Shown here in pieces: positions 7,213-64,000 of a DNA stretch of 64,000 nucleotides. How positions within the stretch are numbered: position 1 is the stretch's first letter; each line of letters starts with the position of its first letter. A program made the translations under genes and the position numbers. The stretch spans positions 543,430,001-543,494,000 of the forward strand of contig CM097882.1 of assembly GCA_044892505.1 (NCBI GenBank), written 5' to 3'. A model generated the notes under the pieces. It saw nothing but the letters and a program-made list of their open reading frames with translations, did not search any database and was not told where the DNA came from. Origin of the DNA: Schmidtea nova (taxonomy: Eukaryota).

Positions 7213-10200
7213 ATTTTTACCTGGATTTTTAAGTAGACATACCGTTCGATTTTCATAGTTGGAATTTTCTTGTTCATTCTTGTTCTCTTTATTTTCATCT
7301 TTGTTTTCATTGTTTTTATTCTCCCATTTCTCACTGTTTCCGTGATTTCCGTGATCACTGTTATCATCATTTTGCTGCTGTTCGTTGCTATCGTTGTCTT
7401 CATCGTCTGGTTTATCGTTTGATTTATCGTCATCGGGGTCGTTTAGATCACCCTCGGTTTCTTTTGAAATGTCGTCCTCGACATTTATATCCTTTATTAT
7501 TTCCCAATACAATTTGATAATTCTTTGTTCATCTAGTTTTATTTCACCCATTTTGCATTTCAATGTTCCAGCATCGTCGTGGAGATAACTCTTGTCTTTA
7601 TTTTTGATCTTTTTTCGCCATTCTTTAACCAATTCAAGTAGTTTTTCTCTCTTTGTTTTTATTTTCATTTCTTCGTTTGGCTTGTTTGTGAATCTGAAAT
7701 CTGGTCTTTTTAGTAGTGCTTTTGCTACTCTAGGTAATGTCCAATTTTCAATCAAAGCTCGCTCCATTAACACATTTTTATCATATTTGAACTCGTTGTT
7801 CACATTCATCAGTCCTTCTCCAGAGAGTGGATCTTTCCATTTTATCATTTTTGAAGCTACTATTTCATCTTTTCTTATCACTGCCCTTAATAATGGCTTT
7901 GGATTTAAACTCAGTATTTCGATGTCCTCTTGACTTGCTTTTGATAAAAGATACTTGGCTATTGTATAATAAGGTGATCTGTAGACATATGATAATACAG
8001 TTTCATTGTTGTTATCCCTTTCTTTGATACTTGACCCTGTTCTTAATAACTCCTCGATTAAGTCTTTGGACCCTCCTTCTTCTACCGCTAGCATTAATGG
8101 TGTTTGTCCTTTCCAATTTTTTATATTCGAGTGTTGTCCGCATCTTTCCATGAGTTTAATTATTTCCATAGCTCTTTTTCCTTCTCCCTTCCTCAAGGCT
8201 ACATTTAGTGGTGTTTCCTCATTAAAATCAGTCATTGTAAATAATATTGGCATCCGCTCCTTGATTATATCAATGAAATTTGGTGTTGCCTTTCCTCTGG
8301 CATACTCATTTATTATCCGATTTAGTCCGTTTATTATTTCGAATACGTGTTTGCCTTCTGTCCATTCCGGCATAATTTCTTTTGCTGTTCCTATTATCAG
8401 ATCCATTTCTTTTATATGTTCCATTCTCGCATCATCCGTTATTTTTTGCTTAATTTTTAATGTTGGACTTCTCATCTTTGGTGCAAAGAATGTTGCTCCA
8501 CAACATCCACATCCTTTACTCTTTCTAAGCATGCATATTTGTCTTGTCTGTGATCTGGTCATTATCCTCCTTTCCTCTGGTTCTTTTGTCGCAGTTTTTT
8601 CTACTCGTTTACATCTACACACGTTCACGTATATCGGTCGAACTAACGGATTGTTGACTAATTTTACCCGGATGTTATTTTCGCTAACAAATATGACTTC
8701 ATATGGTCCTTTTCCCGTTCTCTGTAATTTTTTCGCTGTTCCTGGGATGATTTCTGGTGTTTCGACTATCACCCAATCGCCTAGCTTGAACTGATGTTCG
8801 TGTACATTTCTCTTTTTGTCATGTAGTTCTTTGTAGCTCTCTTGATTGAATCGTATATTCATACCTGCAACTTTCCAAATTTCTTGCATTCGCTCCTTGA
8901 ATTTTGTTACGTAATCGTCGATTTCCATATATTGTGATATTGGTGGTTGATATTCAAGATCCATTGGCATGTTACATTCTCTGCCGTACATCAATTTAAA
9001 CGGACTCATTTTTGTTGCCGAGTGAATCGACATACGGTATGCCATTAGACATAGATTCACATATTCATCCCAATCCTTTTGGTGTTTACTGACATAATTT
9101 GACATCATCTCAATCAATATTCCGTTAAATCTCTCCGTTTGTCCATTTGTTTGGGGGTGATATGGTGAAGTTCTCAACTTAGCAATTCTGAAATAATTGG
9201 TAACTTCGTTGATGATCTCGCTCATAAAATTTGTTCCTTGATCGGTTAATATTTGTTTTGGTGTTCCATATCTACAACATATTTCTTCGACTAATATTTT
9301 GGCTATTGTTCTAGCTTTCTGATCTGGCATTGCAAATGCTTCTGGGAATTTTGTTAAGTAATCAGTTATTACTAATATATAAACATTTCCATGATTCGTT
9401 TCTGGTAATGGTCCTACTACATCCATTGCGATCATTGTCATAGGTTCTGGTGGAATTGGCATTGGTTTTAAAGGTGTTTTCATTTTACTGCCAGTGCTTT
9501 TTCGCGTTGCACATATTAAACAATTCCTAATCCATTCTTTCACATCTTCTCCAATATTTGGCCAAAAATACTTCTGTTTTAATCTCGCTTCCGTTTTCTT
9601 AGCTGACATATGTCCACCAAGTTTTCCATCGTGGTATTGCATCAAGATGTCTTTCCTTCTACCTTCTGGTAAACACATGAGTCTTTTTTCTCCGTCCATT
9701 GCTAATAACCAGCCTTTTTCGATTGTATATTTGTGCCTGTTTTTCTCCATATGCTCCTTTAGTTGGCTGTTATGATCAAAGATTTTCATATCATTCTTAT
9801 TCAAATATTCGATGATTAATTTTAGCTCTTCATCTTCATTTTGTTCTTGTTGTAGTTTAGTGAAATCAATATCTTCTGCGATTATCATACATATTCGCCT
9901 GACATCTTTATCCATTAGTTCCTCAAACATAAACCTTGACATGCAATCCGCATTTGCATTCGCTTTCCCTGACTTGAACTTTATATATGGCGAATATTCT
10001 TGCAGCTGCATTGCCCATCTCATTAATCTGCTTGACGCTTCTTTGTGCTGGCCTAACCATACTAACGGTTGATGATCTGTTGTGATGTATATTTCGTGAC
10101 CCCATAATAGATATTTGAAATGTTTAATCGCCTGAATGATTGCTAGCGCTTCTCTTTCCGTTACCGAGTAATTCTTCTCGTGTTTTCGAAAGGTTTTGCT

Positions 10201-13200
10201 GTAATATCCTATCACTCTTTCTCTCCCATCTTCATCCCATTGTCCTAGTACGGCTCCTGACGCGTATCCACTTGCGTCGGTTGCTAATAGAAATGGTTTT
10301 TTGAAATCTGGGTGTACTAATATTGGCGATGAAATTAACTTGTCTCGCAACTCTTCAAATGCATTTTGTTGCTCTCTTTCCCAGATAAATGGTGTATCTT
10401 TCTTGACTAGCTCTTGTACAGGCTTTGCAATTCCGGCATAGTTTTTAATAAATTTCCGATAATAACCACATAGTCCTAAAAATTCTTGTACTTGGGTTAT
10501 GGTTTTCGGTATAGGACAATTTTTTATCTTTTCGATATTTCTTGGGTCCGGCTCTTTTCCTTTAGCTGATACAATGTGACCCAAAAAGGTAACTTTTGGT
10601 TTTGCCCAATCACATTTTGATGGTTTCAATTTTAATTTCCATTGCCTTAATCGGATGAATACGTTTTGGATATCTTGTAAATGTTGTTCAAACGTACCCG
10701 AGTAAATCAATAAATCGTCAATATATACCATACATTGTTTTATCCCGTGAGTTACAAAATTCATGCATCTTTGAAATGACGCAGGTGCATTAGTTAAACC
10801 AAATGGCATCTTCTTGAACTGGTACAGATCTTTTCCGATGGTAAACGCTGTTTTCTCTCTGTCCTCTTCTTTCACTTTAATCTGCCAGTAACCGCTTTTC
10901 AAATCTAATGACGTGAAGTATGCTGCACCATGTAATGTTTGTAACATTTCGTTGATATCTGGTAACGGGTATGTATCTCTCTTGGTTACTGCGTTCAATT
11001 GTCGATAATCAATACAAAATCGTTGGGTACCATCTTTCTTTTTTACCATTACTACTGGAAATTGCCATGGTGAACAACTTGGTTCAATCACATCTGCGTC
11101 TAACATCTTTTGCACTTCGGCTTCGGCCACTGCTTTCTGCGCCTCTGCTAGTCGATATGGTCTCAATGTGATCGGTGTTTCGTCTGTTAGGGGAATAGTA
11201 TGTTGAGTTACATCACTCGTTCCCAAGTCTAAATCTGATGCTGCAAAGATGTCTTTAAATTCTAACAATACTGTTTTTAGTTTTTCTTTTTCAATATCGT
11301 TTAAAATTTCACTGTCGATTACCCATAACTCCTCCACTTTACTTTCATCCTCTTGAATTTTAGGTAATTCAATATTCATCATCGGGGTTAATTTTCCCAA
11401 TCTCTCATTTTCGTAAATGATTTTGTCTTCCTCATCGAAATTGGTGATGTTGATTGGTATTTCGTTTTCTTTATTGACGTTCACTATTTCTCTTGCCAAT
11501 GGTAACTCTTTTCTCATCTCAAAATTTTGATTTGGCTCAAATATCATTTCCCCGACTGCCGTGTCTTTTACTTTGGTGAAACATATCATTTGCGTTCTTC
11601 CTGGTACGACAATTTTCTTTGAACACCTTACTTCCGTTTTCATTGAACAGATTTGTCCGCTTTTATCTTTCAATCTCATCGTACTCAAATCGATAACAAT
11701 CTCCTTTAATAATTCTGGCATTAAGTCTGTACCAATGATACATGAGGCACCCAATTGTTTTATTACAGCTAAATAAGTAGACATCTCTACGTCTTTATAC
11801 TTAATATCTGACCATATTTTCCCAATAACTTTGACTGATTCTTTATTGCACGTGACCACATCCATTGGTGCTTCTTCAATGCAAGGCCATAACATGCCTG
11901 GTATCATGTTCATGTTTATTGCTGATATATTTGCACCGGTATCTATCATTGCATCCATTTCAACACCGTTGATTTCAATGGCAATAGTAAGGGTTGGTCC
12001 AGCTGATGTTCTCATCATGGCTATTGTCATTGTTTCTAGATTTTTCTCTTCGCTTTGTGGTCTGTTTAGTATTGTTGGGTCTGGTCTGTTTAGTATTGCC
12101 GGGTCAATCATTGCCCAATTTGGTTCGTAATGTGCTGGGTAGAAATTTGGCATTGGTAACATTCGTAGTCCAGCTCGTGTTTTTTCTCTCACTGTTCCTG
12201 GTCTTTGTGGGTTAGGGTATGTCATTGGTGGTAAATTTTGACCTTCCCATTGTTTTGATTTTTCTGCTTCCCATATTGGTGCGGTACCATTTGATCCGGA
12301 GTTCGTTCCTCCTTGATTTCCTTTGTCATCGTTATCACTATCGTCATCATCCGAATCTTTCCTTCGGTTATCCCACCATCTTTTCCATCCACTAGGTCTG
12401 GTTTCTTTATATTTCGTTCTCTCTGCTTCGTTTTTCATAATGAATCTAAATTTTCTACCGATCTCTTCGTCGGTTCCTTTCATCTTGGTCAATATTCCAA
12501 TTAACCTCTTTATTCTATGAATGTCTTTTGAATGCCCATGCAATACCATAGTTTTAGCCAAAAATGGTAGGAATCCAAGTGCCATTTTCCAATTGATTTG
12601 TCTCTCTCTTTTATAGATATCAAAACAAGCTAGCATCTGAGTTATAATAACTCTGACTATTTGAATAATTAGGATTATCCCTAATATTCCTGCCATCATC
12701 TGTCCAAATACTAAGAATCTTCCCCACATGGCTTTCATCATATTATTGGTTGCGTGTTTAAAATGTTCTGGTGACAACAATAACTCGTAGTTCGGACTTC
12801 CCACGAAATTTGTTCCACCGGTTATGGCTATAATATTTGATAATACTGCTTGTCTTTGGGTTGGAAATAGTATATGCTTTCTCGCTGCTTCTAAATCTGC
12901 ATCTCTGTACACTCCACTGTGTGAAATATCTATGGGTTTAAATTCTATTTCTGTTGTTAACTCTGTTAATCCAAATCGTTTAGGTGCTGATACAATTTGC
13001 CGATTTGGAAAAACTACCCATTTTGCATTTCCCATGTCATACATTGGTCCATACGCATTACTGCAATTGAACTGATGGGGTTCGTAATTTGGTGGATTTA
13101 TTATTCTCGTTACTGCTTGTACAAATCGACTTCTTCCCTTGTAGAATATTTCCAATTCGTTAGTACATCGGTTTTCTGGTATTCTTGGTCTTTCCGGTAG

Positions 13201-16200
13201 TCTTGCTATCTCTTTTTTGCATTTGTATGTATACATAACTTCTCCCACAATTCGACCGAAATGTCCTTCTTGCAGTGGTAATAGTGGTATTGCGTTATCT
13301 GGATTCGTTATAGCCATTGCTAATTTGGTTCTCAAAATTTCTCTGTTCAATATACAATCGTTTTGTATCAAATCATGATATACTTTCTCTGTGGTTGCCA
13401 TACCTCTATGGTATAAGAAATCCATTTTATTATTTGCGTACAAATACGTTTTAATGTCCACTGTATCTGGTTTTGGTGCTGCTTCAGCTATCACTGTTGT
13501 AGATAGGAAAATTCCTTTGTAATTCGTTTTTATTACTAATCTTCCGCATTTACTGACGGTTTCACCTTTGATGAATCTCATTCCCACTCCTGGATCTTTT
13601 GCTAAAATTGTTGTTGATATAATTGCTGTTGGTGTATTTACTAATTTAAGTTTTTCCGTCGTCTCTTTATGCTGGAATGTTCTTGTTCTTTTGAGCTGTT
13701 CCATTTCTTGTCTGGTTGAATCATCTTTGGGCTCGTCATAAACTTTTCCTAGTATTTCCTCGAATTCAGCTTCTTGTAATAACATTAGTCGACATTTATT
13801 CGCATCTGCCTTATAAATCAATGTTGATGCACCAGTATTACACGAGGTATGTTCTGCAGAACAACTTGGGAATTTTCTCATTGATAGCGTGTCTGGATCA
13901 AAATATCCCGGATATGTTTCTAGTTTCACTTGATACATCTCTATTACTACTACATTGCTGACCACTTTTCCTAATAGAGTGTATGCTCCTCCTTTACAAC
14001 TTCCGTCCGGTTTATTGACGTATCCGGCTGCATAAACTCTTGTTATTTTAATTGCTCCTGGTTGGGCAGCTATTATTATGTTTCCTGCTAACGATATCCG
14101 TTTTGAGGTAAACGCTTCATTGCACTTTTCGCTATCCAGTGATATTACGGTTGATTCCATTCCTGGTTCGATAATTGTTGAATATGAATATTGTCCACAG
14201 TAATACGCAAATAACTTTCTCGTAACCGTGCATTCTCTTATTTCTGCTTTGATGAGGTCTGATTCCTGATACACGTTGTAACTTATTTTATTCACAATTC
14301 TTTCCAATTTTTTCGGCGTGGCTTGTTTACAATCTTCCGTATCTTTTAATGAATATTTCTCGCTAAGCTCGATTTTGTCACAATCGTATACCACAAACGC
14401 TGTTGCTCCCTTTATGCACATCATCCAAATCAATATTGTGGTCAATATCGCATTCATACTCTTCCCATATGTTTTTTGATCGCGAAAATTCATTGATCCT
14501 TCGAATTCTGTTAATAATTCTCTCAACTTTACTTGCATGGTTTCTGTTTGATCTATTTTATCTACTGAGTTGATGAATGTTTTCCAACCTCCTTGTTTCA
14601 TTACATACGGCTCTATCAGTTTCTCAATGATTTCCGTTATTGTGAATATATGACCATTTGAACTGTATCTGGGTGTTCTCCGTTTGTACAAGACGATCAT
14701 ATTGTACATTAAATATGCCAAGCTTACTAAATATTTTGCTGGTTCGTTCGTGTTGTTTGTTAATTTTTCGATAATTTCTTTCATTTCTGCAGGATTTCTC
14801 AACGTCATTCGTACTTTTCCTTCGATGATTTTTGAGATTATTGGTTTAATCGTTATCCACAGTTGTTTGGCTTCTTGTTGGATGTGGTCTCTTTTTAACG
14901 CTCTTTTTATTTCTGGGTTTGCCAATGCAAGCATATCAGATACTAATTCATTTATCCATCGGATTCCTTGTTCGGTTATTGGTGTATTACCTTTCACTTG
15001 ATTTGCAACTGACACTAGTTTGCTTACTTTTAGTTGTAATTGTTCCGTCCTGCTTACTGATGTTGGTTTTTGATTTCTTTCTGTTTGATCTTTCGCCGGC
15101 CTCCCTCTTGGGCGTTTATCTATCATCGTTCCAGCTTCTCGTCTACTTAGCTGATTATTCGCGATTTCTCTCGATGTTGTCGCTCCTCTATCTGTGATCC
15201 AATTACTCCATTCGTCAGTTGTAGAATTTTCTCTTGCTCGTTTTTGTACTTTTTCTCGGTCGGTTTCATCATCGGTTGCTGTGATTTTTTGCCGTTTTAC
15301 CCAAGGAATTCTCTGGTCATCGGTTGTTGTTTCATTTTCTATGTTTGAGAATAAATCCCCTGAGTAAAATGCTGTTTCATCGTTTTCTCTATTCGCAATA
15401 TTTGTCAGTTCTTCTAATACGTCTTCATCAGTTGTTTCGACAATAATTTCACTTGCAGCTTCCGGTATTTCTGGTTCGTCTAAATTTCCGAATAATTTTC
15501 TCATTTGGGTTCGATTTCCCTCTTTTCTGATTAGTTCATTGCCTGCAATTTTAGAAACAGTTAAATGATTACTTGTTCCGATTCGTATCGGGGTTACACC
15601 AATTTCTATCTCATCATCGAGTGATCTTCCTTCGTACTGTAGATGAAATGGTAATTCAAATGGCAGTTTCTTTTTAATCTCTTTTATTTTCGTGGTTGCC
15701 AATACTTCCATTTCTTCCTTTCCAAAGTCTGGAAAATGGATTTTTAATCCACATTTTTGCGGTTCGTCACTTTCCCATTCCATTTGCCTCCATTTTCTTC
15801 TAAGCTCATCGAATTGTTCTGGATACCAAGTGTATACTCGTCCATATTCCTCGATTTCCTTCACGAGCATTGTCATGGTTAATCTATCCTTGCCATTCTC
15901 GAGAATCCATTTTGCTAATTCGACTACCGCTCTTCGTTGATTTTTGGCACCTTTTTCTAAAATATCGATTAACTGTCTACTTTTTTGGGCTTCAGTTCTC
16001 TCTAATACTTCAGGGTCCATCAGTTCATCCATATCTACAGGACGTAATCTCGAGGTTGTTTCTTGTTTTCTTAGCACGCTGATTCTGGGAATTGTCAGCT
16101 TTTCCCTTACGTCTTCCTCAATTTTGCATGAAACATAAATATCTCCTTCACTTTGATATCGAGATTTTTTATCTAATAGCAAGTGTTGCAAGATAAATTT

Positions 16201-19200
16201 TGGTGCTCCTGATGCTATATTTTCCTCTTTTTCTGGTTTATGATAGCAGCTGCAGAGCTTTTCTGGATAAATTTCTTCACTATGACCCTTCTCTGAATTG
16301 TAGGATGATCCTATAGACAATGTTACTTTTTGATCGAACGGCCATGTTAATTCCTCGTCATTGATCCCTTTACAGATGATATAAAATAATGACGTATGAG
16401 TTCCTTTACCAACTCCATCTCCGTTTGGATAAATTCTCATTTTTAATTTATATCCGCCTGGGTAAGTGTAAAATTGTGGGCTTGTCAATCGCGTTACTTC
16501 ACCCTCCTTTGCTGCTCTCACTTTATCTGCCCAATTTGAAATTCTCCATTTGAATGGTGCAAGATATTTCTCTTCGCATATGTTCTCGTCGACTTCCAAA
16601 TGTTTCCCAGTTATTTCTGATGGTTCGTAAATCTCATGGGTTTCCTCATATAACAGTTCCTCAGGTATTCGTTCTGGTTCACATGTTACCCATCTATCCT
16701 CCACATTTGGTTGTTCCCATCTGTATCGATTTTCTAATTCTATCCATGTCTTTATCCACGGCGTTGGTTTACAATCTCCATAATGAAGAGGTTTTATTTT
16801 CCCCTTTATTTCATTATCCGCTCTCCAAAAATTATATAAATCGATTATCTGGTCTAGTTTTCCGACCATTTTTCTTTTAAATCTCCTCACGTGACCATCG
16901 TCTTTCTCTGGTTCGTCCATTGCCCATATTTTAACTGTTTGACCGTCTTCCCAAATACCCAGTTTATATAAAGGTGTCTGATCATCTTTTTCTAATACAT
17001 GTTTATTGTACACGATTATTACATCTTCTATTAATCCGTCATCACTATTTTGTTTCACGTTATGCATAATTTTCTCATCGATTATCCGTATGAATTCGTC
17101 TACCGTACAATCTGGTTCTATTTCAATTGTTTGTTCGTCTCCACTTGGCAACGTTAGATTGACTTTTATCGTTTCCGCTCGATTCTTTGATCTCTGATAG
17201 CCGCCATATTGACTTATTAATTCGATTGCTCGTTTATCATCTAATCTCACTAACTCGGTATCTCGTACGAACTCTACAAATCTCTTCATTGATGCTGGTC
17301 TTCTTCTATTTATACTATCGATCATTTTCCTCGTCTGGTCTATTGCTTGTGTCGAAAGCATTAATCGATTTTCCCATATTGCTTGTTCGGCCAATTTTAA
17401 TAATTTTGGTCCGATTTCATAATCGTATCTATCTCCAATTCTTGTCAGTAGTTTCATCACCGTTTCTTCAATCGCGTTCTTCTTTAACGTTAAGATATTC
17501 AACTCGTTCGGCCATATCATAGCATCTACTAGATGTATTCCCTTTTTGATTCGCCAATTATTCAAATAAAGATAATCGTTTTTAAAACTGCTACCCATTT
17601 TCTCTTGCATCCAGTCATATAATGCGTTAGTATTTGGGTCGTTTATTTTTATTCCTAATACATCGATTTCGGGGTGGTGTACTTCTATCGTATACTCTTG
17701 AGTTGGCGTTTCTTTTAATTGCTTCTTGTATTCCGCTATTGAGTTGTTCCACGCTGCGGTGAATACTTGATTTTCTACCTGATTTGCTTGGGTGACTTCC
17801 TTCATAAACTTCTGATATACTTTTTCATCAATAAACTCCCGATTCTTCATGGCTAATTCAACCTTGCCTGTTACTTCTCCGATGATATTCCAATCGTCTT
17901 CACTTAGCAACGCGTTGCTTGATGTTTCGGTATCACTTTCTTCGCTAGCCAAAGGTGCTTTTAAATCGTTGTTTTCCTCACTTGACGGAAATAAGTCACC
18001 TCCTAAACTACTTACTTCGCTAATCTCGTCTTCTGGATCTGTTTGATCATCATTTCGCATTCTCATCATATTTATTTTATACACATTTTTAAGATCTCTT
18101 TCTTTTTCCTTTTGCGTTCTTGCTTGTGACCAATTCATTGTTGCGTCCCATCGTTTTCTTTTCAGTGCTTCTACTTCTTCATCTGTCAATGTGTTATTCG
18201 CTTTTCGAATTGAAGCTTCAATTTTCTGCAGTAGTGCTCGTTGAAGTCGGTTTCTGGTTATAATTTTTTGAGCTTTCTTTGTGATCTCTTCAACTTCTTC
18301 AGTGCTAGTTTTTTCCAATTTCTGATTTAACTTTCCTACTTCATTCGCGACAATAGTTGTTATTTTCTGTTCTATTTCCTTCGCTTTTATTTTCACTATT
18401 TCTTCCAATTCCTCACAGGTGTTGCAAACATTCCCACTGTCTCTTTTTTCTTTTCTTCTTTGATTATATTCTTGAATGAATATTTTCCTTTCTTCTTCGT
18501 TCATTGATTTTATTGAAACTTCGAATTCTCCATCTTTTTCATTAATCTCTACATCTGGTAACTCTGTTATCATTTCCTTCACTTTTTCTATTACATTCTT
18601 CTGCAATTTACTCATTTCCTCTGGATCTTCTTTATCTTCGCTTTTAACTCTCATCATGTTAATTTGCCTTGTGTTATTTCCTCGATTTTTCCATCTCTCT
18701 TCAATTTCCCGTGCTTCCTCCAACTGAAGTCTCTGCCATTCTGCTTGTTGTTTCGTTTGATTTTTGTTCGTCCTTAACTTGTGAGGCTCGGTGATTTGCA
18801 AAGCATTAATTCTTGGCTGTTGTGGTTGGCTGACTGTTGTTCGTTCGATTAATTCTCTCAGTTGTTCAAGTTCCTGCATCACATTGATTTGTGGTGTTTG
18901 ATTTTGGTTTTCGGTTCGCTGTGGTGCATTGACTTGGTTTGGGCATTCTCTCGCCATATGTCCAGGTTGTTGGCATTTGAAACAATTGGCGTTTCTTCTA
19001 AAATTTCCTCCATTATTGTTATTTCTTACGTAGTAATTTCCTGCACTAGCATTTACGGTTCTGCATACATTTTCTGTATGACCTTTTCTACCACAACTTT
19101 GACATGTTTTAGTGCTATAACATTCATGACTCAGATGTCCAGATTTTTGACAAATGTTACATATTTTGCTGGTGAATAAATTGTTATTCCCGTAATTATT

Positions 19201-20067
19201 CCTATTACTATACGCGTTGCTGTAAGTATTGTTATTTCTGTCTGTATTGTTTCGATTACGGTTGTCCATATTTGTATTCTGATTTCTCATTGGAGTTTTG
19301 AACATTTGTTGCGCTCTTGGTATAAATTGATTCATCATTGGAGTCGTGTTGTCTGGTTGATTACCTTCATTGGTCGTATTGGTTGTTGATTTTGTTGTTG
19401 GTTCCGCTGTCAAAACAGCAACTGTCAATGGTGGTTTTAAATACATTTCGCATCGATTCGCGATTGTCAGTGCTTCCTCCAACGTTTTTGGTGCCTGACA
19501 TCCGATATTTGCACGAATATCATCTCTTCTGAGTCCACTCAGAAATACTCCTACCAATCCTTCATCTTTTACTTTTTCCTCGCCGTAGGCATCTCTTGCC
19601 ATACGTTTTAATTCGCACGCGAACATCGCATTGGATTCGTTGGGTTTTTGTTTTCTGTGGAAGAAATCTAACATTTTCTGATTTTCTTCTTTCGCCACTC
19701 CAAAGGTTTTTTCTAAAAAGTCCTTGATTTCTTTCCATGTTCTCAATTTTTCATCATCTCGTCTTGCCTCTAAATAAACATCTTGTGCGCTTTCTTTTAA
19801 ATATAGCGGCATTCGTTCTCGGGTGGCTTCGTCTGACCAGCGACAGATCGTAATATAAACCTCAAATTCCTTTAGGAAGGTTTGTAATTTACTGATATTA
19901 CCATCAAATGGTTCTCCACGGAATTTTTCTTTAAAATCTCCAAGGTTGGCTGCTGACGTGGTACTCATTTTTATCCCTTCTTTCTCCTCGTCCGAGTTTA
20001 AACTTTCTGTGTAATTCTGGTTAATCTGTTCAATATAATTCCTTTCTACTTCCTCGCTGGTATCCAC
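5275..20067 (-). CDS. Giant Gag-accessory-Env-Pol-accessory polyprotein (4930 codons from GTG; frame open to 20268; true start probably upstream via splicing)
   Basis: Uninterrupted ORF with recognisable gag, MATH, glycoprotein, PR, RT, RH, INT, ankyrin, FN3-like and TM segments. The ORF-track start is GTG, and the first in-frame ATG is MSTTSAA about 33 codons later. Confidence 0.97.
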   Translation of the reverse strand: MDTSEEVERNYIEQINQNYTESLNSDEEKEGIKMSTTSAANLGDFKEKFRGEPFDGNISKLQTFLKEFEVYITICRWSDEATRERMPLYLKESAQDVYLEARRDDEKLRTWKEIKDFLEKTFGVAKEENQKMLDFFHRKQKPNESNAMFACELKRMARDAYGEEKVKDEGLVGVFLSGLRRDDIRANIGCQAPKTLEEALTIANRCEMYLKPPLTVAVLTAEPTTKSTTNTTNEGNQPDNTTPMMNQFIPRAQQMFKTPMRNQNTNMDNRNRNNTDRNNNTYSNAYSNRNNYGNNNLFTSKICNICQKSGHLSHECYSTKTCQSCGRKGHTENVCRTVNASAGNYYVRNNNNGGNFRRNANCFKCQQPGHMARECPNQVNAPQRTENQNQTPQINVMQELEQLRELIERTTVSQPQQPRINALQITEPHKLRTNKNQTKQQAEWQRLQLEEAREIEERWKNRGNNTRQINMMRVKSEDKEDPEEMSKLQKNVIEKVKEMITELPDVEINEKDGEFEVSIKSMNEEERKIFIQEYNQRRKEKRDSGNVCNTCEELEEIVKIKAKEIEQKITTIVANEVGKLNQKLEKTSTEEVEEITKKAQKIITRNRLQRALLQKIEASIRKANNTLTDEEVEALKRKRWDATMNWSQARTQKEKERDLKNVYKINMMRMRNDDQTDPEDEISEVSSLGGDLFPSSEENNDLKAPLASEESDTETSSNALLSEDDWNIIGEVTGKVELAMKNREFIDEKVYQKFMKEVTQANQVENQVFTAAWNNSIAEYKKQLKETPTQEYTIEVHHPEIDVLGIKINDPNTNALYDWMQEKMGSSFKNDYLYLNNWRIKKGIHLVDAMIWPNELNILTLKKNAIEETVMKLLTRIGDRYDYEIGPKLLKLAEQAIWENRLMLSTQAIDQTRKMIDSINRRRPASMKRFVEFVRDTELVRLDDKRAIELISQYGGYQRSKNRAETIKVNLTLPSGDEQTIEIEPDCTVDEFIRIIDEKIMHNVKQNSDDGLIEDVIIVYNKHVLEKDDQTPLYKLGIWEDGQTVKIWAMDEPEKDDGHVRRFKRKMVGKLDQIIDLYNFWRADNEIKGKIKPLHYGDCKPTPWIKTWIELENRYRWEQPNVEDRWVTCEPERIPEELLYEETHEIYEPSEITGKHLEVDENICEEKYLAPFKWRISNWADKVRAAKEGEVTRLTSPQFYTYPGGYKLKMRIYPNGDGVGKGTHTSLFYIICKGINDEELTWPFDQKVTLSIGSSYNSEKGHSEEIYPEKLCSCYHKPEKEENIASGAPKFILQHLLLDKKSRYQSEGDIYVSCKIEEDVREKLTIPRISVLRKQETTSRLRPVDMDELMDPEVLERTEAQKSRQLIDILEKGAKNQRRAVVELAKWILENGKDRLTMTMLVKEIEEYGRVYTWYPEQFDELRRKWRQMEWESDEPQKCGLKIHFPDFGKEEMEVLATTKIKEIKKKLPFELPFHLQYEGRSLDDEIEIGVTPIRIGTSNHLTVSKIAGNELIRKEGNRTQMRKLFGNLDEPEIPEAASEIIVETTDEDVLEELTNIANRENDETAFYSGDLFSNIENETTTDDQRIPWVKRQKITATDDETDREKVQKRARENSTTDEWSNWITDRGATTSREIANNQLSRREAGTMIDKRPRGRPAKDQTERNQKPTSVSRTEQLQLKVSKLVSVANQVKGNTPITEQGIRWINELVSDMLALANPEIKRALKRDHIQQEAKQLWITIKPIISKIIEGKVRMTLRNPAEMKEIIEKLTNNTNEPAKYLVSLAYLMYNMIVLYKRRTPRYSSNGHIFTITEIIEKLIEPYVMKQGGWKTFINSVDKIDQTETMQVKLRELLTEFEGSMNFRDQKTYGKSMNAILTTILIWMMCIKGATAFVVYDCDKIELSEKYSLKDTEDCKQATPKKLERIVNKISYNVYQESDLIKAEIRECTVTRKLFAYYCGQYSYSTIIEPGMESTVISLDSEKCNEAFTSKRISLAGNIIIAAQPGAIKITRVYAAGYVNKPDGSCKGGAYTLLGKVVSNVVVIEMYQVKLETYPGYFDPDTLSMRKFPSCSAEHTSCNTGASTLIYKADANKCRLMLLQEAEFEEILGKVYDEPKDDSTRQEMEQLKRTRTFQHKETTEKLKLVNTPTAIISTTILAKDPGVGMRFIKGETVSKCGRLVIKTNYKGIFLSTTVIAEAAPKPDTVDIKTYLYANNKMDFLYHRGMATTEKVYHDLIQNDCILNREILRTKLAMAITNPDNAIPLLPLQEGHFGRIVGEVMYTYKCKKEIARLPERPRIPENRCTNELEIFYKGRSRFVQAVTRIINPPNYEPHQFNCSNAYGPMYDMGNAKWVVFPNRQIVSAPKRFGLTELTTEIEFKPIDISHSGVYRDADLEAARKHILFPTQRQAVLSNIIAITGGTNFVGSPNYELLLSPEHFKHATNNMMKAMWGRFLVFGQMMAGILGIILIIQIVRVIITQMLACFDIYKRERQINWKMALGFLPFLAKTMVLHGHSKDIHRIKRLIGILTKMKGTDEEIGRKFRFIMKNEAERTKYKETRPSGWKRWWDNRRKDSDDDDSDNDDKGNQGGTNSGSNGTAPIWEAEKSKQWEGQNLPPMTYPNPQRPGTVREKTRAGLRMLPMPNFYPAHYEPNWAMIDPAILNRPDPTILNRPQSEEKNLETMTIAMMRTSAGPTLTIAIEINGVEMDAMIDTGANISAINMNMIPGMLWPCIEEAPMDVVTCNKESVKVIGKIWSDIKYKDVEMSTYLAVIKQLGASCIIGTDLMPELLKEIVIDLSTMRLKDKSGQICSMKTEVRCSKKIVVPGRTQMICFTKVKDTAVGEMIFEPNQNFEMRKELPLAREIVNVNKENEIPINITNFDEEDKIIYENERLGKLTPMMNIELPKIQEDESKVEELWVIDSEILNDIEKEKLKTVLLEFKDIFAASDLDLGTSDVTQHTIPLTDETPITLRPYRLAEAQKAVAEAEVQKMLDADVIEPSCSPWQFPVVMVKKKDGTQRFCIDYRQLNAVTKRDTYPLPDINEMLQTLHGAAYFTSLDLKSGYWQIKVKEEDREKTAFTIGKDLYQFKKMPFGLTNAPASFQRCMNFVTHGIKQCMVYIDDLLIYSGTFEQHLQDIQNVFIRLRQWKLKLKPSKCDWAKPKVTFLGHIVSAKGKEPDPRNIEKIKNCPIPKTITQVQEFLGLCGYYRKFIKNYAGIAKPVQELVKKDTPFIWEREQQNAFEELRDKLISSPILVHPDFKKPFLLATDASGYASGAVLGQWDEDGRERVIGYYSKTFRKHEKNYSVTEREALAIIQAIKHFKYLLWGHEIYITTDHQPLVWLGQHKEASSRLMRWAMQLQEYSPYIKFKSGKANANADCMSRFMFEELMDKDVRRICMIIAEDIDFTKLQQEQNEDEELKLIIEYLNKNDMKIFDHNSQLKEHMEKNRHKYTIEKGWLLAMDGEKRLMCLPEGRRKDILMQYHDGKLGGHMSAKKTEARLKQKYFWPNIGEDVKEWIRNCLICATRKSTGSKMKTPLKPMPIPPEPMTMIAMDVVGPLPETNHGNVYILVITDYLTKFPEAFAMPDQKARTIAKILVEEICCRYGTPKQILTDQGTNFMSEIINEVTNYFRIAKLRTSPYHPQTNGQTERFNGILIEMMSNYVSKHQKDWDEYVNLCLMAYRMSIHSATKMSPFKLMYGRECNMPMDLEYQPPISQYMEIDDYVTKFKERMQEIWKVAGMNIRFNQESYKELHDKKRNVHEHQFKLGDWVIVETPEIIPGTAKKLQRTGKGPYEVIFVSENNIRVKLVNNPLVRPIYVNVCRCKRVEKTATKEPEERRIMTRSQTRQICMLRKSKGCGCCGATFFAPKMRSPTLKIKQKITDDARMEHIKEMDLIIGTAKEIMPEWTEGKHVFEIINGLNRIINEYARGKATPNFIDIIKERMPILFTMTDFNEETPLNVALRKGEGKRAMEIIKLMERCGQHSNIKNWKGQTPLMLAVEEGGSKDLIEELLRTGSSIKERDNNNETVLSYVYRSPYYTIAKYLLSKASQEDIEILSLNPKPLLRAVIRKDEIVASKMIKWKDPLSGEGLMNVNNEFKYDKNVLMERALIENWTLPRVAKALLKRPDFRFTNKPNEEMKIKTKREKLLELVKEWRKKIKNKDKSYLHDDAGTLKCKMGEIKLDEQRIIKLYWEIIKDINVEDDISKETEGDLNDPDDDKSNDKPDDEDNDSNEQQQNDDNSDHGNHGNSEKWENKNNENKDENKENKNEQENSNYENRTVCLLKNPGKNTIIMTILLTMLNWVKAIDYIFDQRRAEARIVTDTENIWITNIKGELIIKICTVAIRKNGVSDHQKCIRTALAIGEEQKVEKLESGTTYIICIYRTNQIRAICAAKEMITKMGNERNRLEKIQSVTKTPIDENEEENEEEEQDKKVMMTIQNKTTIEVKEKEMMVTNNVREPITQICWIKTIHMQNKDRQLSCKFQMTGQNGKFRIPGLKPGTSYTICIRRIWTQKLCLEKPTKEIITTTTTTSGTTTYYPLIVETKSTEIILINNHEEVIKKVCWRKVDMNSGLDNPSKCYQQSVKGKEQMIIKELESKTTYLICIWRTFVPICQEHTTTEQIITSTESGREPDEKAIRLPRATITVTEKPTIVKGYRKEIEISITPNQIQKETEKFFQNDIIKVKNVQGHLIARICIYEVKLQQEKCKSVSNKEEKSFIEEEEYYVAGWERGTKYRVCLYKKLNEDPTCQFISKLPRRVDDTREFSIEDQILTTTKPTVYNKYISEEEAERIIQGGRPIKIVQTTTESPTTISAAVEESKIAIKMIWITAGIIGAILVLILTQHAKITGRCKRKTKRKRQWPSIEKFEYGISLEEVKTEDEYEICNGSEFNGMWMQGLPPTINPSIIEADIYRTTNELYGGMRNLHFGPQETLV
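7845..8235 (-). other. Ankyrin repeats (about 4) C-terminal to integrase
   Basis: FNEETPLNVALRKG, WKGQTPLMLAVEEG...LIEELLRTGS.I..RDNNNETVLSY and KPLLRAV match the TPLH.A / L.LL..GA ankyrin pattern. Confidence 0.88.
8640..9635 (-). other. Integrase (HHCC, DDE core, GPY/F)
   Basis: H...GGH...C..C, MDVVGPLP, TDQGTNF, YHPQTNGQTERFN, GKGPYEV. Confidence 0.97.
9935..10300 (-). other. RNase H (Ty3/Gypsy type)
   Basis: LATDASG..GAVLGQ...IGYYSK.....EKNYS.TEREALAII...TDHQPL...NANADCMSR. Confidence 0.96.
10550..11150 (-). other. Reverse transcriptase
   Basis: SPWQFPVVMVKKKDG..RFCIDYRQLN...LDLKSGYWQI...KTAF...MPFGLTNAPASFQR...YIDD (10714-10725). Confidence 0.98.
11690..12000 (-). other. Aspartic protease
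   Basis: IEINGVEMDAMIDTGANISAI (DTG at 11935-11943) and downstream CIIGTD. Confidence 0.95.
12500..14457 (-). other. env: Envelope-like fusion glycoprotein, chuvirus/Monjiviricetes type, embedded between Gag and protease
   Basis: Signal-like MNAILTTILIWMMCIKGATA followed by FVVYDC...SL.D..DC. Cys-rich ectodomain with GEVMYTYKC...C..EL.I...G..RF...VTR...C...Y....W, and a C-terminal TM (12643-12718). Confidence 0.8.
14570..15030 (-). other. Bcl-2-like helical domain
   Basis: About 150 aa amphipathic helical region ending YVMKQGGWKTF (14575-14607), matching the BH2 consensus WI..QGGW..F. BH1 is divergent, with no NWGR. Confidence 0.65.
15555..15747 (-). other. Second ubiquitin-like domain (divergent)
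   Basis: LKIHFPDFGKEEMEVLATTKIKEIKKK...HLQYEGRSLDDEIEIGVTPIRIGTSNHLTV matches the L.y.Gr.L.D...I ubiquitin motif. Confidence 0.6.
16114..16560 (-). other. TRAF-type MATH (TRAF-C) domain within polyprotein
   Basis: FKWRI...SPQFYTYPGGYKLKMRIYPNGDGVGKGTHTSLF...G.ND..LTWPFDQKVTL...P..E.NIASGAPKF is a near-complete TRAF-C signature. Confidence 0.95.
16921..17172 (-). other. Ubiquitin-like domain within polyprotein
   Basis: TIKVNLTLPSGDEQTIEIEPDCTVDEFIRII...IIVYNKHVLEKDDQTPLYKLGIWEDGQTVKI follows the beta-grasp ubiquitin pattern. Confidence 0.75.
18940..19165 (-). other. Three CCHC zinc knuckles (nucleocapsid)
   Basis: CNICQKSGHLSHEC, CQSCGRKGHTENVC and CFKCQQPGHMAREC all fit CX2CX4HX4C. Confidence 0.95.
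19430..19930 (-). other. gag: Gag capsid-like domain
   Basis: PFDGNISKLQTFLKEFE...W...LYLKESAQDVY...W..IK..L...F...QKPNESNAMF..EL...GL...EAL..A resembles the retrotransposon Gag capsid pattern. Confidence 0.85.
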
Positions 20068-20944
20068 AGATAAACTTTCCGATGTTGCAAACTCTGTTTG
20101 TTCGGATGAAGGCCTTCTGTTGTGTGTTCTTGAAGATTTCGCAGTTTCTTTCTCTTTGTTTTCTAGTAGACTTAGCTCTCTGTCTAAATTTTGATCTTTG
20201 TCTTGATTTTTACGCTTTAATAGCCGCTCTGCGATACTCCCAGTATTCCCTGCTTTGTCAATTGTTGATTATTTCTCTCTTACGGTTAGATTCTCTTTTA
20301 TATTTTTCTTCTTTTACTTCTTTCCTCTTCAATGAGTCTTCTTTTTCTTCTTTTTCTTCCTTTATTCCTGTTTTCAAAACTGATTCACTTGAATTTGATG
20401 GTTTTGGTTTGATGTTATCTAAAAATATAAAAAAATGGATCCATTTATAATTAATTTTGTTCATCATTTTAGGCTTCTTCCTCTTTCCCACCGTTCCGAC
20501 ATCGTCGCTACTCACCCCCCATAATTTAGGTGGATTTTAATTTATCTATACCTCGTAATAATTATCTATGTAGGGTCGTACGGTTTACCTGGTACCTTCA
20601 TCCATAATAATAATGATAATAATAATAATAATACTAATTATAATAATAATTTGCACAAAACTTTTCTTAACATAACTCTCATACTTCGTTTCGAAATCAT
20701 GATTTTCACAAATACTTTATTTATTTATTGTCGTCGTTCTCTTTCAGATTTTCTGATGTTTCCAGCTAGCTTTTTATAATATTTCTTAATGGATGTTACA
20801 ATTCTTACGCTGTCATTCTATCCTATTTTTCCTAGATGTACCTTCTTTAATCTCTTTTTACTAACTTCTATTTTCTCAAAATGCATTTTATTTCTTCTAC
20901 GAGCTCTCAAAATTTCTCACATGCATGAATTTCTATATATTTTT

Positions 20945-21517
20945 GGATCCTCAAAGTCTCTCATACATGAACTCTCAAAGTTTCTCAATTATCTGGACTC
21001 TCAAAGTCTCTCATACATGAACTCTCAAAGTTTCTCAATTATCTGGACTCTCAAAGTCTCTCATACATGAACTCTCAAAGTTTCTCAATTATCTGGACTC
21101 TCAAAGTCTCTCATACATGAACTCTCAAAGTTTCTCAATTATCTGGACTCTCAAAGTCTCTCAATTATCTGGACTCTCAAAGTCTCTCCCAGAGCGCTCA
21201 ATTATCTGGACTCTCAAAGTCTCTAAATTACCTGGACTCTCAAAGTCTCTAAATTACCTGGACTCTCAAAGTCTCTCAATTATCTGGACTCTCAAAGTCT
21301 CTCAATTATCTGGACTCTCAAAGTCTCTCACATACATGAACTCTCAAAGTTTCTCAATTATCTGGACTCTCAAAGTCTCTCACATACATGAACTCTCAAA
21401 GTTTCTCAATTATCTGGACTCTCAAAGTCTCTCATACATGAACTCTCAAAGTTTCTCAATTATCTGGACTCTCAAAGTCTCTCACATACATGAACTCTCA
21501 AAGTTTCTCAATTATCT
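20945..21517. repeat. Tandem array, 50-bp higher-order unit built from 24-26 bp subunits sharing ACTCTCAAAGTYTCTCA
   Basis: TCAAAGTCTCTCATACATGAACTCTCAAAGTTTCTCAATTATCTGGACTC recurs at 20951, 21001, 21051, 21101, with subunit shuffling thereafter. Confidence 0.95.
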
Positions 21518-22488
21518 CGGCCGTCTTCAATTCATTCTCTTTATACTATTTAATCACTCATTTTCCTATTCTCAATAAATTCGCTGTTACTGACTGTTTT
21601 TCTCAGATTGTTCTACTACTTCTCAATTATGAATTCATCAGGGTAAAATCGTCGAAATTCACTTTCTACTCTTTCGACTTTCTAAAATCTGCAGCCTCTT
21701 TCTCTTTATTAATGTTACTGTCTCCTACCTCAGTGTACCAATCATGCCTTGGTAAACTGATGTATAAGACGAACATTACGGGTTTGACCCTTTCTCCTAA
21801 GTTAAAATCGTAAAATAATCGCGTCGACTCGTTCTGCAAATTGTGATGATCAGTCACAAACAAAATTTATCAACATTTGCGATGGATCCTATTCTACATT
21901 TTCTCCTTAAGGTGATCAGGTTTTTCCCAGTTTGTTGTTTGCTAATTTTTCAACAACAGAAATATTGGCGTACTATCTTTTGATAGCTCTGTTTAAACTT
22001 GGCGTACTATCTTTTGATAGCTCAGTTATGAATTTGTGGACTATTTTCTCGTTTCTACTCAGATACTCATTTCTCGCTTAATTTAAGAGGATTCTCCCTA
22101 TAAAATCAACTTCTATAACTCTACTTATTGCTTGTCCTAATACATACATTTTTATATTTATGATCAGTATGATAATCAATATAATAATGATAATAAAGGA
22201 GATTTATAGTAATGAAATTCGGAATCAATGTAATAATGATGATGAGGAAGATTTATAATAATAATAATAAAGGAAATTCAAAAAGAAAAGAAAAGTAACT
22301 TGTCACAAATTCCCATTTTCCTAATGTTTGATTTTTCGGCATTAGCCGTTACTTGTTATGTTTTTTACACGATTCTCAGTCATTAATTACCTAGTGTTCT
22401 GTGTTTATTTAATTTTTACGACGATTTGGATTACTGGATGATCGACGAAGTTCAACATGACCAAAACGTTTATTTCGAACGACATTCT

Positions 22489-22815
22489 TTATGAACAAAA
22501 TACTACGATTTTGTCATCAGTTGTCTGTTTGCAGATTACACATCTCTTTATTTCTCTAGAGCACGGCTGGCAATAATACAAATGCCCACACGGCATGAAT
22601 AAAATGTTCGCTTCTCTTTGTCGACAAATATAACATCCTTCGAACAAATCGATCTGTTGATTTATCGATCTCTCTAGCTTGTCCATAATTTTATCGATTT
22701 TACCAATCCATTCTTGTATTTTTAAATTAAAACTCGGATTATTCGGTCGCAATCGTCGTAATTCATAAATTGTCTCTAACGAAATATTGTTTGTTGTTCC
22801 TACAATTCCTTTCAT
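22489..22815 (-). CDS. Small IAP-like C3HC4 RING finger protein (108 aa from first ATG) in element leader
   Basis: CYICRQREANILFMPCGHLYYCQPCSREIKRCVICKQTTDDKIVVFCS* fits the IAP/MGRN-type RING with an aromatic C-terminal tail. The ORF-track start at 22848 is GTG; the first ATG is at 22815. Confidence 0.85.
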   Translation of the reverse strand: MKGIVGTTNNISLETIYELRRLRPNNPSFNLKIQEWIGKIDKIMDKLERSINQQIDLFEGCYICRQREANILFMPCGHLYYCQPCSREIKRCVICKQTTDDKIVVFCS

Positions 22816-22974
22816 TTCATTTTCTCGTTCGAATCTCTCGCTCAACACTCAATTCACCGTAACATATGCTCAATCGCTTCCATCTAAAATATTCATGATG
22901 ATCGGTGTTTATAACTTTTTGAATTAACCATTCATTATGATTTGAACGAAAAATAAATAATAAATTATATTTTT

Positions 22975-24133: not shown

Positions 24134-27100
24134 AGTAAAATCAAACACAATTTTCCGCTGTTTCTGTCAAAATTTTATTTAACAGTTTGTTGATGTTTTA
24201 TGAAAACTTTCATTAAGTCTCGCGCGAACTCGTTTTAGTTGCTTTTCGATTTTTTCAAGCAAAACAAACTCAAATCCCGGCTGAGCCCCCAAATTTTTAT
24301 ATGGTGGGTCGTTGATCGTCAATATGACCTTGACGTTGCTATGGCCCTCATCAACAACCCAACACACAAAAATATTGAAATTTACCACCTTGTTACCCGT
24401 CACTATGTAACGTTGGTACTGTAACAAGTGGGTGGGTATTCGCAATCAGTGAGCGTCGTCAATACGAAACTATGATTGACCGAATATCTCCTGGGTCCAA
24501 GGGCTACCGATAGAAGGTTTCTTGCCCATTTTGTCCCCTTCTTCGACGATTTATCTTTAAGCATTCAACAAAATTTTATCGGCAATTCAACATTAATATT
24601 CTACCTAACTATAAATTCGTGATTACATCCAAATAAATCATTCCGAGCATCAAAACACTAATAAAACATTAAATTTTACTTATATTATAATTTATGTTAA
24701 TTATTAATGAAAGTATTCTAAAATAAAATTTTTAATTTACATTTGCATTTACGATAAAATCAAGACTTTAATTCTTAATTTGTGAATATTTATAACTAAT
24801 TTACTTTTATAACTAATTGATATTCCGAAACAATTTGTTTCAATCCATCATTCAATCCACAACAAGCCGAACACCATTCAAATTCACCAAGCATAATTTT
24901 CTACGCAAATCATTTCTCTCTATTGGCAAAACAAGTAAATTTTTAAATTAATTGATATGCTGAAATTAATTCTTTTCATAGCCCTCAATTTCAAAAACAC
25001 AGGTGGAAACTCAGTTCGGAAATCTTAGCAACTACGTCTTATCACTTTAATCTATTTGACAGATTTGAATATCTAACAATTATCCAAACCATTAATCCAA
25101 TCGACAAATCCCAATTAATCAACAATCCGCGACAATGTCTAATGATCATGACTCCAATAAACCAGCGTTGTGGTCATCCATGTCAGTGACAAATACTGCT
25201 TAACAATATCTTTTCTTAGTGCTGAATTTAATATATGTACTTTATTTGCATTTTTACTTTTTATGTAAAATGGTTTTTATCATACAAAAGGGTAACAATT
25301 AATTATTTTAATTAAAATACTTAAAGTTTTGCTAGACGAAATATAATAATCTTTGAATTTCATGTGAAAATAAATTGATTGTCACTAGATGAAATATAAT
25401 ATTATTTTAAAATAATATACCAAATTTTACTTTAAAAGGCACCATAAATTCACAATAATACAATTTTTTAACTTAAACATTATTGATTTTAAAGGCAATC
25501 TTGAAAACTTCCTAATATCCGTTACAAATAAAAAGGTTCCACACCAAATGTTTGTGGTGGGTGAATGGATGAAACCTTGGCATTGTCCTTCTGGAGGCAT
25601 GCATGTCTACGCATGATGTGGGATACTATCATTTCGAGCTTGATTGTTGATACACTTTTACAGGTTTATTATGAATTTTTCATTGATAGTGCAGGAGATT
25701 GTATGTGATTATATGTGTCTGTATGTTGACTTGAATGTTGGATGAGAATAAATAATTTATTGGTGGATGAGGTGTAGTATGATGACTGTGTGTTCTATTG
25801 TTACTGTTGGGTTTGTGTGTGATTGTATGATGAGCGATTTAAAAACAATTGAGTGCTTGTGAGTGTGGTTGGACGTATAATTCTAACTAGCATGTCTGTG
25901 TGAAATTTTTGGGGTAGCTGGTTGGTGTGTATGTGATTGTTGAATGTTATTGAGTGATACGGTGTAGGTGTGTCTATTGTATTTTATACGTATGTTGTTT
26001 GTATATTAATATGGATGATGCTATTGAGTGAAAAGGGTGTAAATCTTTGCAATGGGTGATGTATTAGTATTTTAAGATGTCGTGGGGGGTTATATTATAA
26101 ATTAAATAAATTGTATAAAATATTTCTAAAGTTAAAATAAAAATAAAAAAAAAATTTTTAAAGTTAAACTAATGGTAATGATTTTTAGATCAAGATAATA
26201 ATAATAATTTTTAGATCGAAATAATAATAATATTTCTCATAATGCTTTTTTACAAATTTTTAAGTTTTAAAATTTCTACGAAAAACAATTAACGATAAGG
26301 TTTATAATTTTTTATAATGTCGATTTGAATTTACAATTTTTATACTTTAAGAATAGAATAAAAAAAAAATTTCTATAAAATCTCGAATTCAGATTTTTTA
26401 TAAAATAATAAAATTTATTAATATAATAATAAAATTTCAATCTAAATTTTCATGGGGTTTAATATAACTTTTGATTTTCAAATTCTCGGGAATTTTACGA
26501 AATGATAAAATCCTTTTATATATTAATAATATTAGGAACCAAATTTGGTTTACAATTTTTCCATATAAAATCTTTTCAACATAATAAAAAGCAAATTTCT
26601 ATTTCTGATCCAAATGAAATGATAATAAATTTTTATCCATAAATTCAAGATCTAAATAAGCATTTAATCTAAAAAAACTTTACCTGCTAAATAAAAATAA
26701 AATAAAAATAAGTTATAAATTTTTCAACGAGTATTTTTAACCTCAAGCAAAGTAAATTTCGGTTTTGTTGAGCATGAATTTCCCAACTAAGTGTGCGCGA
26801 ACCTTTCGGGACACTTCACTCAGGAATTTCAGGCTCTCGAAAAACAAGATTCACAGGAAAACTTATTTAGACCATAATGAGCTTTAATTCAGATTAAATC
26901 AATACTTGTTTCACAATTTGTTTCACTTCATGAGCATTATTCTAGACTTGAGCATTATTTCGAACCATTTTCTTTTCATCATCAGCATCCATTTTTCTTG
27001 CATTTTCTTATGAGATGAACGTTGTTGAGAGTGCGAAGGTGAAGGCGAGTACGAGTCGATTTTTTAATCAATAATATTTCCTATTTTAGATTTCAAGACA

Positions 27101-29062: not shown

Positions 29063-29211
29063 GTCTTAAACACACACACACACAATTTATCTATGTACAA
29101 AAAATTATTATTATTAAAAATTATATTTCATTAGTCTTTGTTTCGTTGCACATGGATTGCAATGTCTTTGTTTCTTTGCACATGGATTGCATTGTCTTTG
29201 TTAATATTTGT

Positions 29212-29354
29212 TGATGAGTCATACTGATGAGTCATACCAATGAGTCATACTGATGAGCCATACTGATGAGTCATACTGATGAGTCATACTGATGAGTCAC
29301 ACTGATGAGTCATACTGATGAGTCATACCAATGGGTCATACTGATGAGTCATGG
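29212..29354. repeat. Minisatellite, 11 x 13 bp (TGATGAGTCATAC)
   Basis: Eleven units counted, 8 with perfect ATGAGTCAT. Confidence 0.95.
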
Positions 29355-38790: not shown

Positions 38791-38848
38791 ATCTGTTAAT
38801 TAATACTTTGCTTATCTCACACGTTATTTCATTATATATTATACATAT

Positions 38849-39383
38849 TGTTGGGGTTAGTATAAAAAGCACGAAAGTAACAAGAAATATCAAAATAAAT
38901 AAGTGCAAAAAATTAATTAAAATTTATCAAAAATTTAAAATTAATATCCATCGGGGGAAATGGGTATGGTTGAATGCCAAATCAAAAGACGAAGCCAAAA
39001 ATAATAACAGAAATTTAGTAAGAGGTCCCCAGAGAAAGTTATATAGTAAAAACAAACTAATTAAAATTAATTAATCGCTCAATGGGAAACCCGAGACAAT
39101 GGGAAGTCCGAGGCAATGGGAAACCCGAGACAATGGGAAGTCCGAGGCAATGGGAAACCCGAGCGCAGTAGAGACCCGAGAGATCAAAGCCAGGAGATTG
39201 CGCAGGGCAATTAGAGAAAAGCCACCCTATCGCAATCACAATAATTTGTTTTTAAATCAATTAAGCCCGAGATTGGGTAACTTTTAGTTATTGATAAAAT
39301 TAAATTGTCATTTGCGAGAGGTATAAAAGTGTTCTGTGTTGGGTTCATTGATTTCGATAATTAAACAGAACAATAACCCAACA
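38849..39383 (+). mobile_element. Solo LTR (535 bp), TSD ATAT
   Basis: Starts TGTTGGGG, ends ACCCAACA, atat flanks, GGGAAACCCGAGACAAT sub-repeats. Confidence 0.85.
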
Positions 39384-63966: not shown

Positions 63967-64000
63967 ATACAATTATGAAAATTATTGATATAAATCAAAA

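Follow-up and report, generated by a model that had tools for sequence, protein, structure and literature searches.

A giant Burro-type retrotransposon of Schmidtea nova with one degenerate Bcl-2-like domain, likely membrane-held by the envelope signal peptide

Introduction

What does a giant retrotransposon do with a Bcl-2-family domain, and does it carry one such module or two? The question is raised by a retroelement in a 64,000-nucleotide stretch of the Schmidtea nova genome (GenBank assembly GCA_044892505.1, contig CM097882.1, positions 543,430,001 to 543,494,000), here called the window, to which all coordinates refer. An earlier note, made from the letters alone, had pointed to two Bcl-2 signatures in this element: a helical domain of about 150 residues closed by the BH2-like YVMKQGGWKTF and, closer to the N-terminus, a BH3-like motif, LLTRIGDRYD, followed by ISQYGGY as a possible second fold. 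The three motifs do share a single minus-strand frame that is free of stops (5275-20268), and the retroelement context is borne out by long terminal repeats (LTRs), Gag and the protease, reverse transcriptase, RNase H and integrase domains (PR-RT-RH-IN). The evidence favors, with reasonable though not high confidence, a Burro-type element with one degenerate Bcl-2-like domain, likely membrane-held by the envelope signal peptide and likely dampening host death signaling, in which the upstream 'BH3' is likely a structural helix between ubiquitin-like domains.

A degenerate Bcl-2-like domain precedes the envelope

The domain that ends in YVMKQGGWKTF (14575-14607, minus strand; aa 1888-1898) is, on profile evidence, a real but degenerate Bcl-2 homologue. 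The assignment draws on four sister families in the same genome that hold a clearer Bcl-2-like copy at the same place: a sister-family profile matches the window domain (HH 87%, E 4e-6), the 60 best PDB matches of a joint profile of window and sister domains are all Bcl-2/Bcl-xL, and three HMMs made from Bcl-2-like rows match aa 1818-1899 of the window protein. The sister-family profiles thus uphold the proposed homologue with a decayed BH1, and the roughly 150 residues before GGW are predicted, as had been suspected, to be all-helical (7 helices, mean pLDDT 59). The BH2 signature W-x5-GGW reads YVMKQGGW, with Tyr in place of the first Trp found in families B-E. The BH1 NWGR is gone, TNEPAK occupying the aligned position, and the BH3 LxxxGD is absent within the domain, the only LxxxGD of the protein lying at aa 941. 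Degradation of BH1 NWGR and of BH3 extends to all five families, although GINWDR can still be read in one family-C copy.

Could the domain be no more than a remnant that separates Gag from the signal peptide of the envelope, devoid of a host-directed function? Its identity to the sister copies is just 15-20%, and it is absent in three of four outside relatives. Against this, the domain and its BH2 have been kept across five deeply split families, and 30 copies, a sample biased by ranking on protein similarity, differ by 14 synonymous changes and 1 replacement within it; the spacer explanation retains a very slim chance.

Direct searches with the domain were negative: a single-sequence Pfam search returned nothing relevant, a longer-protein search confirmed 0 of 1,925 candidates, a protein atlas gave no usable match, and 271 pattern matches in metagenome contigs yielded 0 confirmed ones. 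Two sets of candidates were rejected: bromodomain PDB matches of the single sequence were weak (best E 0.016) and judged to be chance, and five matches among 1.84 billion representative sequences were all repeat-driven and unrelated to the domain.

The envelope signal peptide as a likely membrane anchor

About 48 residues past the Bcl-2-like domain begins a hydrophobic segment, the envelope signal peptide. A segment of this kind lies 30-61 aa past the BH2 Trp, ahead of the [YF]DC with which the glycoprotein starts, in 6/6 elements, namely the five families of this genome and one outside relative. This fixed placement suggests that the signal peptide likely doubles as the anchor of the Bcl-2-like domain, which would thereby acquire a membrane attachment 'for free'. 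With the envelope in frame, the segment would have to insert as an internal signal; on established signal-peptide biology, a lumen-side cut by signal peptidase would then leave the Bcl-2-like domain cytosolic and C-terminally anchored, like cellular Bcl-2, and the protease of the element may free it from the upstream polyprotein.

An anti-apoptotic function is plausible, and a pro-survival role would be the most likely one in view of the inhibitor-of-apoptosis (IAP) precedent in Burro; such an effect would keep element-expressing cells alive. Any contact with Bak/Bax-like proteins of the host would have to be non-canonical, since the domain no longer has NWGR. The domain may have been captured long ago from a host mRNA, since 4/8 host Bcl-2-family matches show GTGAG directly after GGW, likely an intron, whereas the element reads through. 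The host Bcl-2-family genes (L032-L040) include a BOK-like one (E 6e-17 to BOK) and several in which GGW is probably followed by an intron.

An upstream cassette of ubiquitin-like domains

LLTRIGDRYD (17422-17451, minus strand; aa 940-949) is followed 78 aa later by ISQYGGY (17197-17217, minus strand; aa 1018-1024). In the predicted model, aa 857-926 and aa 1034-1118 show beta-grasp patterns and flank the helical module that contains both motifs, itself modelled as five low-confidence helices (pLDDT mostly <50). The first ubiquitin-like domain aligns with the first one of families D and E; the profile of the second, A7, matches ubiquitin-fold PDB chains (best E 3e-5), and no Bcl-2 chain is present among the best 60 of its 106 PDB matches; a likely third was reached with a profile of eight sister modules, which gave E 2.7e-4 for one sequence when compared to aa 1426-1564. 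Families D and E show the same ubiquitin-like/helix/ubiquitin-like order, with IVKELNDVL and IIRELNDAL aligned to LLTRIGDRY, and ISQYGGY aligns to LKCYGEY, LQKYGQH, LQRYGFL and FQRYGNE of other elements. LLTRIGDRYD is likely an ordinary structural helix between two ubiquitin-like domains.

These data bear directly on the suggestion that 17200-17460 encodes a second, degenerate Bcl-2 fold. GGY does stand at a distance from the BH3-like motif near the BH3-BH2 spacing, and five helices are predicted, but the roughly 100 aa available between two ubiquitin-like domains leave no room for helix 1; the HH probability of the module is 0.3% with the Bcl-2-like domains of the sister families and 0.2% with the host Bcl-2 rows, the three Bcl-2-like HMMs match nothing at aa 930-1030, and ISQYGGY corresponds to a 'YG' helix end that B, P0007, P0008 and P0009 also show ahead of a ubiquitin-like domain. 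A second fold is very improbable, and this part of the earlier proposal is not supported.

The BH3-like motif fared better in part. Of 2000 shuffles that preserved the composition of the full 4,997-aa protein, 0.45% contained the exact LxxIGDxxD and 4.6% contained Lxx[ILMFV]GDxx[DNE]; the looser Lxx[ILMFV][GAS]Dx[hydrophobic] turned up in 18%, a share that falls to 7% when the first hydrophobic position is added and to 2% when only aa 450-1940 are shuffled. The patterns were picked after the sequence had been seen, so the match is suggestive and not clearly beyond chance. In BH3 motifs of the BH3-only type, the first hydrophobic position is followed by a small residue; here Met938 stands in that place, and the strict pattern gives 0 matches. 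The four hydrophobic positions and the Gly-Asp pair are in register (V937, L941, I944, G945, D946, Y948) with the motifs of PMC9171138, Table 1. The motif keeps the exact consensus and the register; the chance rate of 7-18%, Met938 and the divergent helix of families D and E tell against a true BH3.

Searches around the motif gave little: three PDB matches at E 0.87 or worse, 0 of 5,345 shorter candidates, and a score of 0.02 for a modelled complex of a host Bcl-2-like exon and a 40-aa BH3-like peptide, computed without alignment or controls, which speaks neither for nor against binding. Four contig sets cover the region, all with R943K, a change also present in 17 of the 20 copies examined; the sequencing runs listed included no RNA data set.

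Observations that weigh against the favored reading

Several results count against the reading preferred here. The homology of the helical module to its counterparts in other elements is weak, its score being reached by 4/1000 shuffles with family E and by 518/1000 with family D, with an HH probability of 0.9% and an HMM match (aa 1017-1067) of E 0.03. The 12-mer VMKLLTRIGDRY is in register with BH3 motifs that have been validated, such as those of BAX and BOK (PMC9171138, Table 1), L, I, G, D and Y of the motif are kept in 20/20 near-identical copies, and LLTRIGDRYD is the only broad-pattern match in 10 proteins (0/9 others, D and E being partial and several lacking the region). Finally, the loss of NWGR may leave room for a non-apoptotic signaling role.

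The motif data could mean that the window family has gained, by acquisition or by evolution in place, a helix that functions as a BH3 ligand for a host Bcl-2 protein or for the element's own domain. MOAP1 and RTL10/BOP are gypsy-Gag-derived proteins. Their listing as BH3 carriers (PMC9171138, Table 1) lends this idea a precedent. Yet broad patterns appear by chance in 7-18% of shuffles, the aligned helix of D and E lacks the invariant Leu and Gly, Met stands where a small residue is expected, and conservation of the motif says little among copies that are 97-99% identical and in which constraint extends over all 177 aa of the region (29 synonymous vs 17 replacement changes). A BH3 ligand is quite unlikely. 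A two-part death switch, in which a protease-freed BH3 helix would bind the signal-peptide-anchored Bcl-2 fold or host Bcl-2 proteins, is very unlikely; if real, it would give the transposon a means to push the survival of host cells up or down.

The loss of NWGR opens another route. Several poxvirus Bcl-2-fold proteins block innate-immune or TRAF/NF-kB-type signaling, and the element's fold could now do so instead of acting on mitochondrial apoptosis: the window family no longer has BH1 NWGR or BH3, both are degraded across the five families, and the element also holds a TRAF-type MATH domain, ubiquitin-like domains, ankyrins and a RING open reading frame (ORF). By contrast, the element has preserved BH2 and the likely membrane anchor, the parts that apoptosis regulators also preserve, GINWDR survives in one copy of family C, and the sole functional report on Burro cargo, known here at second hand and in part, is anti-apoptotic. 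A switch to immune signaling is unlikely, and a membrane-held domain that dampens death signaling is preferred.

Anatomy, age and copy number of the element

The element is an intact 28.6-kb 'Burro'-type Ty3/gypsy retrotransposon (Table 1). Its insertion was very recent, given that the two LTRs are one indel apart, the ends are TG...CA and a 4-bp GAAT target duplication is present on both flanks. The primer-like site after the 5' LTR is presumably of the Pro-tRNA type. The polyprotein, 4,897 aa counted from the Met (19968) with which the Gag region starts, is arranged as Gag, ubiquitin-like domains, MATH, Bcl-2-like domain, envelope glycoprotein, PR-RT-RH-IN and ankyrins; the envelope has a transmembrane helix at 12643-12699 and the C-terminal region another at 5557-5613 (both minus strand). 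An AT-hook-like motif sits at the matching place in family B, and shorter membrane-protein-like ends are also seen in families B, C and P0008-P0010. Upstream, the RING ORF encodes 108 aa from a Met at 22815; Pfam gave no BIR match in either this ORF or the polyprotein, with 157 leader bases masked. An A/T-rich stretch upstream of this ORF could be an intron, making a longer spliced product possible.

Genome searches, in which the best 150 matches were scored, returned 941 candidates for the Bcl-2-like domain; the best 150 are all 98-100% identical, many in frames of about 5,000 aa, so that the scored copies of the window family are all near-identical.

Table 1. Features of the Burro-type element in the window
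Feature	Position	Strand	Basis or remark
5' LTR, 4,257 bp	24302..28558	-	TG start, CA end; tRNA-primer-like site next
Upstream ORF ending in IAP-type C3HC4 RING finger	22489..22848	-	PF13920 E 2e-13
Tandem array of 24-26-nt repeats, 5' leader	20907..21559	.	Repeat detection
Polyprotein ORF, single	5275..20268	-	4,997 codons stop to stop
Gag: capsid-like region, CCHC zinc knuckles	18937..19968	-	PF03732 E 2e-5, PF00098 E 4e-7
Ubiquitin-like domain 1, aa 857-929, predicted	17482..17700	-	Model beta-beta-alpha-beta-beta-beta, pLDDT about 48-71
Helical module, ~100 aa	17179..17481	-	LLTRIGDRYD in first helix, ISQYGGY in last
Ubiquitin-like domain 2, aa 1033-1114	16927..17172	-	Alignment profile A7, model pLDDT 58-86
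TRAF-type MATH domain, aa 1239-1383	16120..16554	-	PF21355 E 1e-23, PF22486 E 2e-23
Likely helical module and ubiquitin-like domain 3	15553..16011	-	8-sister-module profile vs aa 1426-1564
AT-hook-like motif KRPRGRP	15082..15117	-	PF02178 E 0.12, below cut-off
Degenerate Bcl-2-like domain, aa about 1752-1902	14563..15015	-	Profile homology via sister families, model
Hydrophobic segment, envelope signal peptide	14392..14448	-	Hydropathy 1.85
Envelope glycoprotein, in frame	12589..14391	-	PF24664 Monjiviricetes_fusion E 1e-69
Pol, Ty3/gypsy order	8599..11991	-	Pfam
Aspartic protease	11710-11991	-	Pfam
Reverse transcriptase (RT)	10570-11046	-	Pfam
RNase H	9994-10383	-	Pfam
Integrase	8599-9669	-	Pfam
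Ankyrin repeats	7579..8241	-	PF12796 E 1e-7
C-terminal membrane-protein-like region, fibronectin-III-like repeats	5278..7212	-	PF00041 E 1.6e-6, weak
3' LTR, 4,256 bp	1..4171	-	Final 85 bp precede window start

Relatives and other repeats

An envelope profile drew 3,413 candidates from the genome, and the envelope tree left the place of the window family among its relatives without resolution. Four further Gag-Env-Pol families (L062, L063, L084, L085; about 2,990-3,400 aa) each have ubiquitin-like and Bcl-2-like domains. A high-copy, apparently non-autonomous relative (L068-L071, G000:C1:54614001-54644000; also L066) is 82-94% identical to the window element in LTR pieces, 86-88% in the leader and 75% in the RING ORF. 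Its 1,045-aa ORF keeps spacers, protease and ankyrins and lacks capsid, Bcl-2-like domain, envelope, RT and integrase; it is followed by a TRAF-like ORF (zf-TRAF and MATH), a 399-aa BIR-RING IAP ORF, and coiled-coil and small membrane ORFs. The best 150 of its 2,489 candidates are all 97-99% identical, with no frame >1,070 aa among them, and a BIR search gave 1,295 candidates.

Elsewhere in the window, related 17-nt repeat arrays, direct and inverted, at 34579-34860 and 38484-39183 are likely DNA transposon ends, and palindromic repeats of about 200 bp (45362-45552, 50911-51102, 63774-63995) are MITE-like. By eye, remnant frames resemble the GIY-YIG endonuclease of a Penelope-like element (57449-57910, plus strand) and a hAT transposase fragment (32781-33212, minus strand). 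A 13-nt tandem repeat, TGATGAGTCATAC, is present in at least 10 copies at 29186-29367; the TGAGTCA within it is presumably an AP-1-like site.

Comparison with known systems

Viral multi-domain Bcl-2 homologues exist. The window domain shares with cellular Bcl-2 proteins (Bcl-xL, BAK) BH1-BH2 profile homology, a tentatively predicted helical bundle, GGW and a C-terminal hydrophobic segment; it differs in lacking NWGR and BH3, in being made within a polyprotein and in an anchor probably borrowed from the envelope signal peptide.

The available part of the Burro description reports planarian elements with a 4,873-5,140-aa ORF that holds Gag, MATH, a ubiquitin-like domain, a BCL2-like motif and ankyrins, the envelope being in frame between BCL2 and protease; the motif was noted in Burro-2, -3 and -4, and meddling with apoptosis was already suggested (PMC6431247). 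With Burro-1/GYPSM1 and Burro-2 to -4, the window element shares the single ORF of about 5,000 aa, Gag with CCHC knuckles, PR-RT-RH-IN, the MATH, ubiquitin-like, BCL2-like and ankyrin cargo, the position of the envelope, multi-kb LTRs, an upstream accessory ORF and high copy number (PMC6431247). It differs from that part of the description in size (28.6 kb vs >30 kb published), in three likely ubiquitin-like domains vs one described, in the lack of a dUTPase Pfam match and in a RING-only upstream ORF in which no BIR was found, with the leader masking given above (PMC6431247). Matched by this published layout, the window element is a new Burro-type element with an already described Bcl-2-like cargo; the sequence searches returned no published Burro sequence.

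GAG-ENV-POL errantiviruses with a gB-type envelope, known from Platyhelminthes, Nematoda and Bryozoa, are likewise intact, multi-copy Ty3/gypsy elements in which the envelope separates Gag from Pol; Bcl, Burro and ubiquitin do not appear in the main text, as far as it was accessible (PMC13524379). As partly available, a further source describes a BIR-RING module of Burro1 that protects planarian stem cells (PMC13465017), also a host-type anti-death module in a planarian giant retrotransposon, with BIR plus RING on caspases there vs a Bcl-2-like domain here. Literature searches found no functional test of the Burro Bcl-2-like domain. This Burro1 B-IAP, in which BIR and RING act on caspases, is reportedly the work of Lee et al. 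in Dev Cell, 2026.

Significance

The presence of a Bcl-2-like domain in Burro was already known; the addition made here is a testable mechanism for its anchoring. If the domain protects cells, Burro elements would block death at two levels, the Bcl-2 step and the IAP/caspase step. Such a two-level block, if true, would bear on how giant transposons thrive in planarian stem cells and maybe benefit them.

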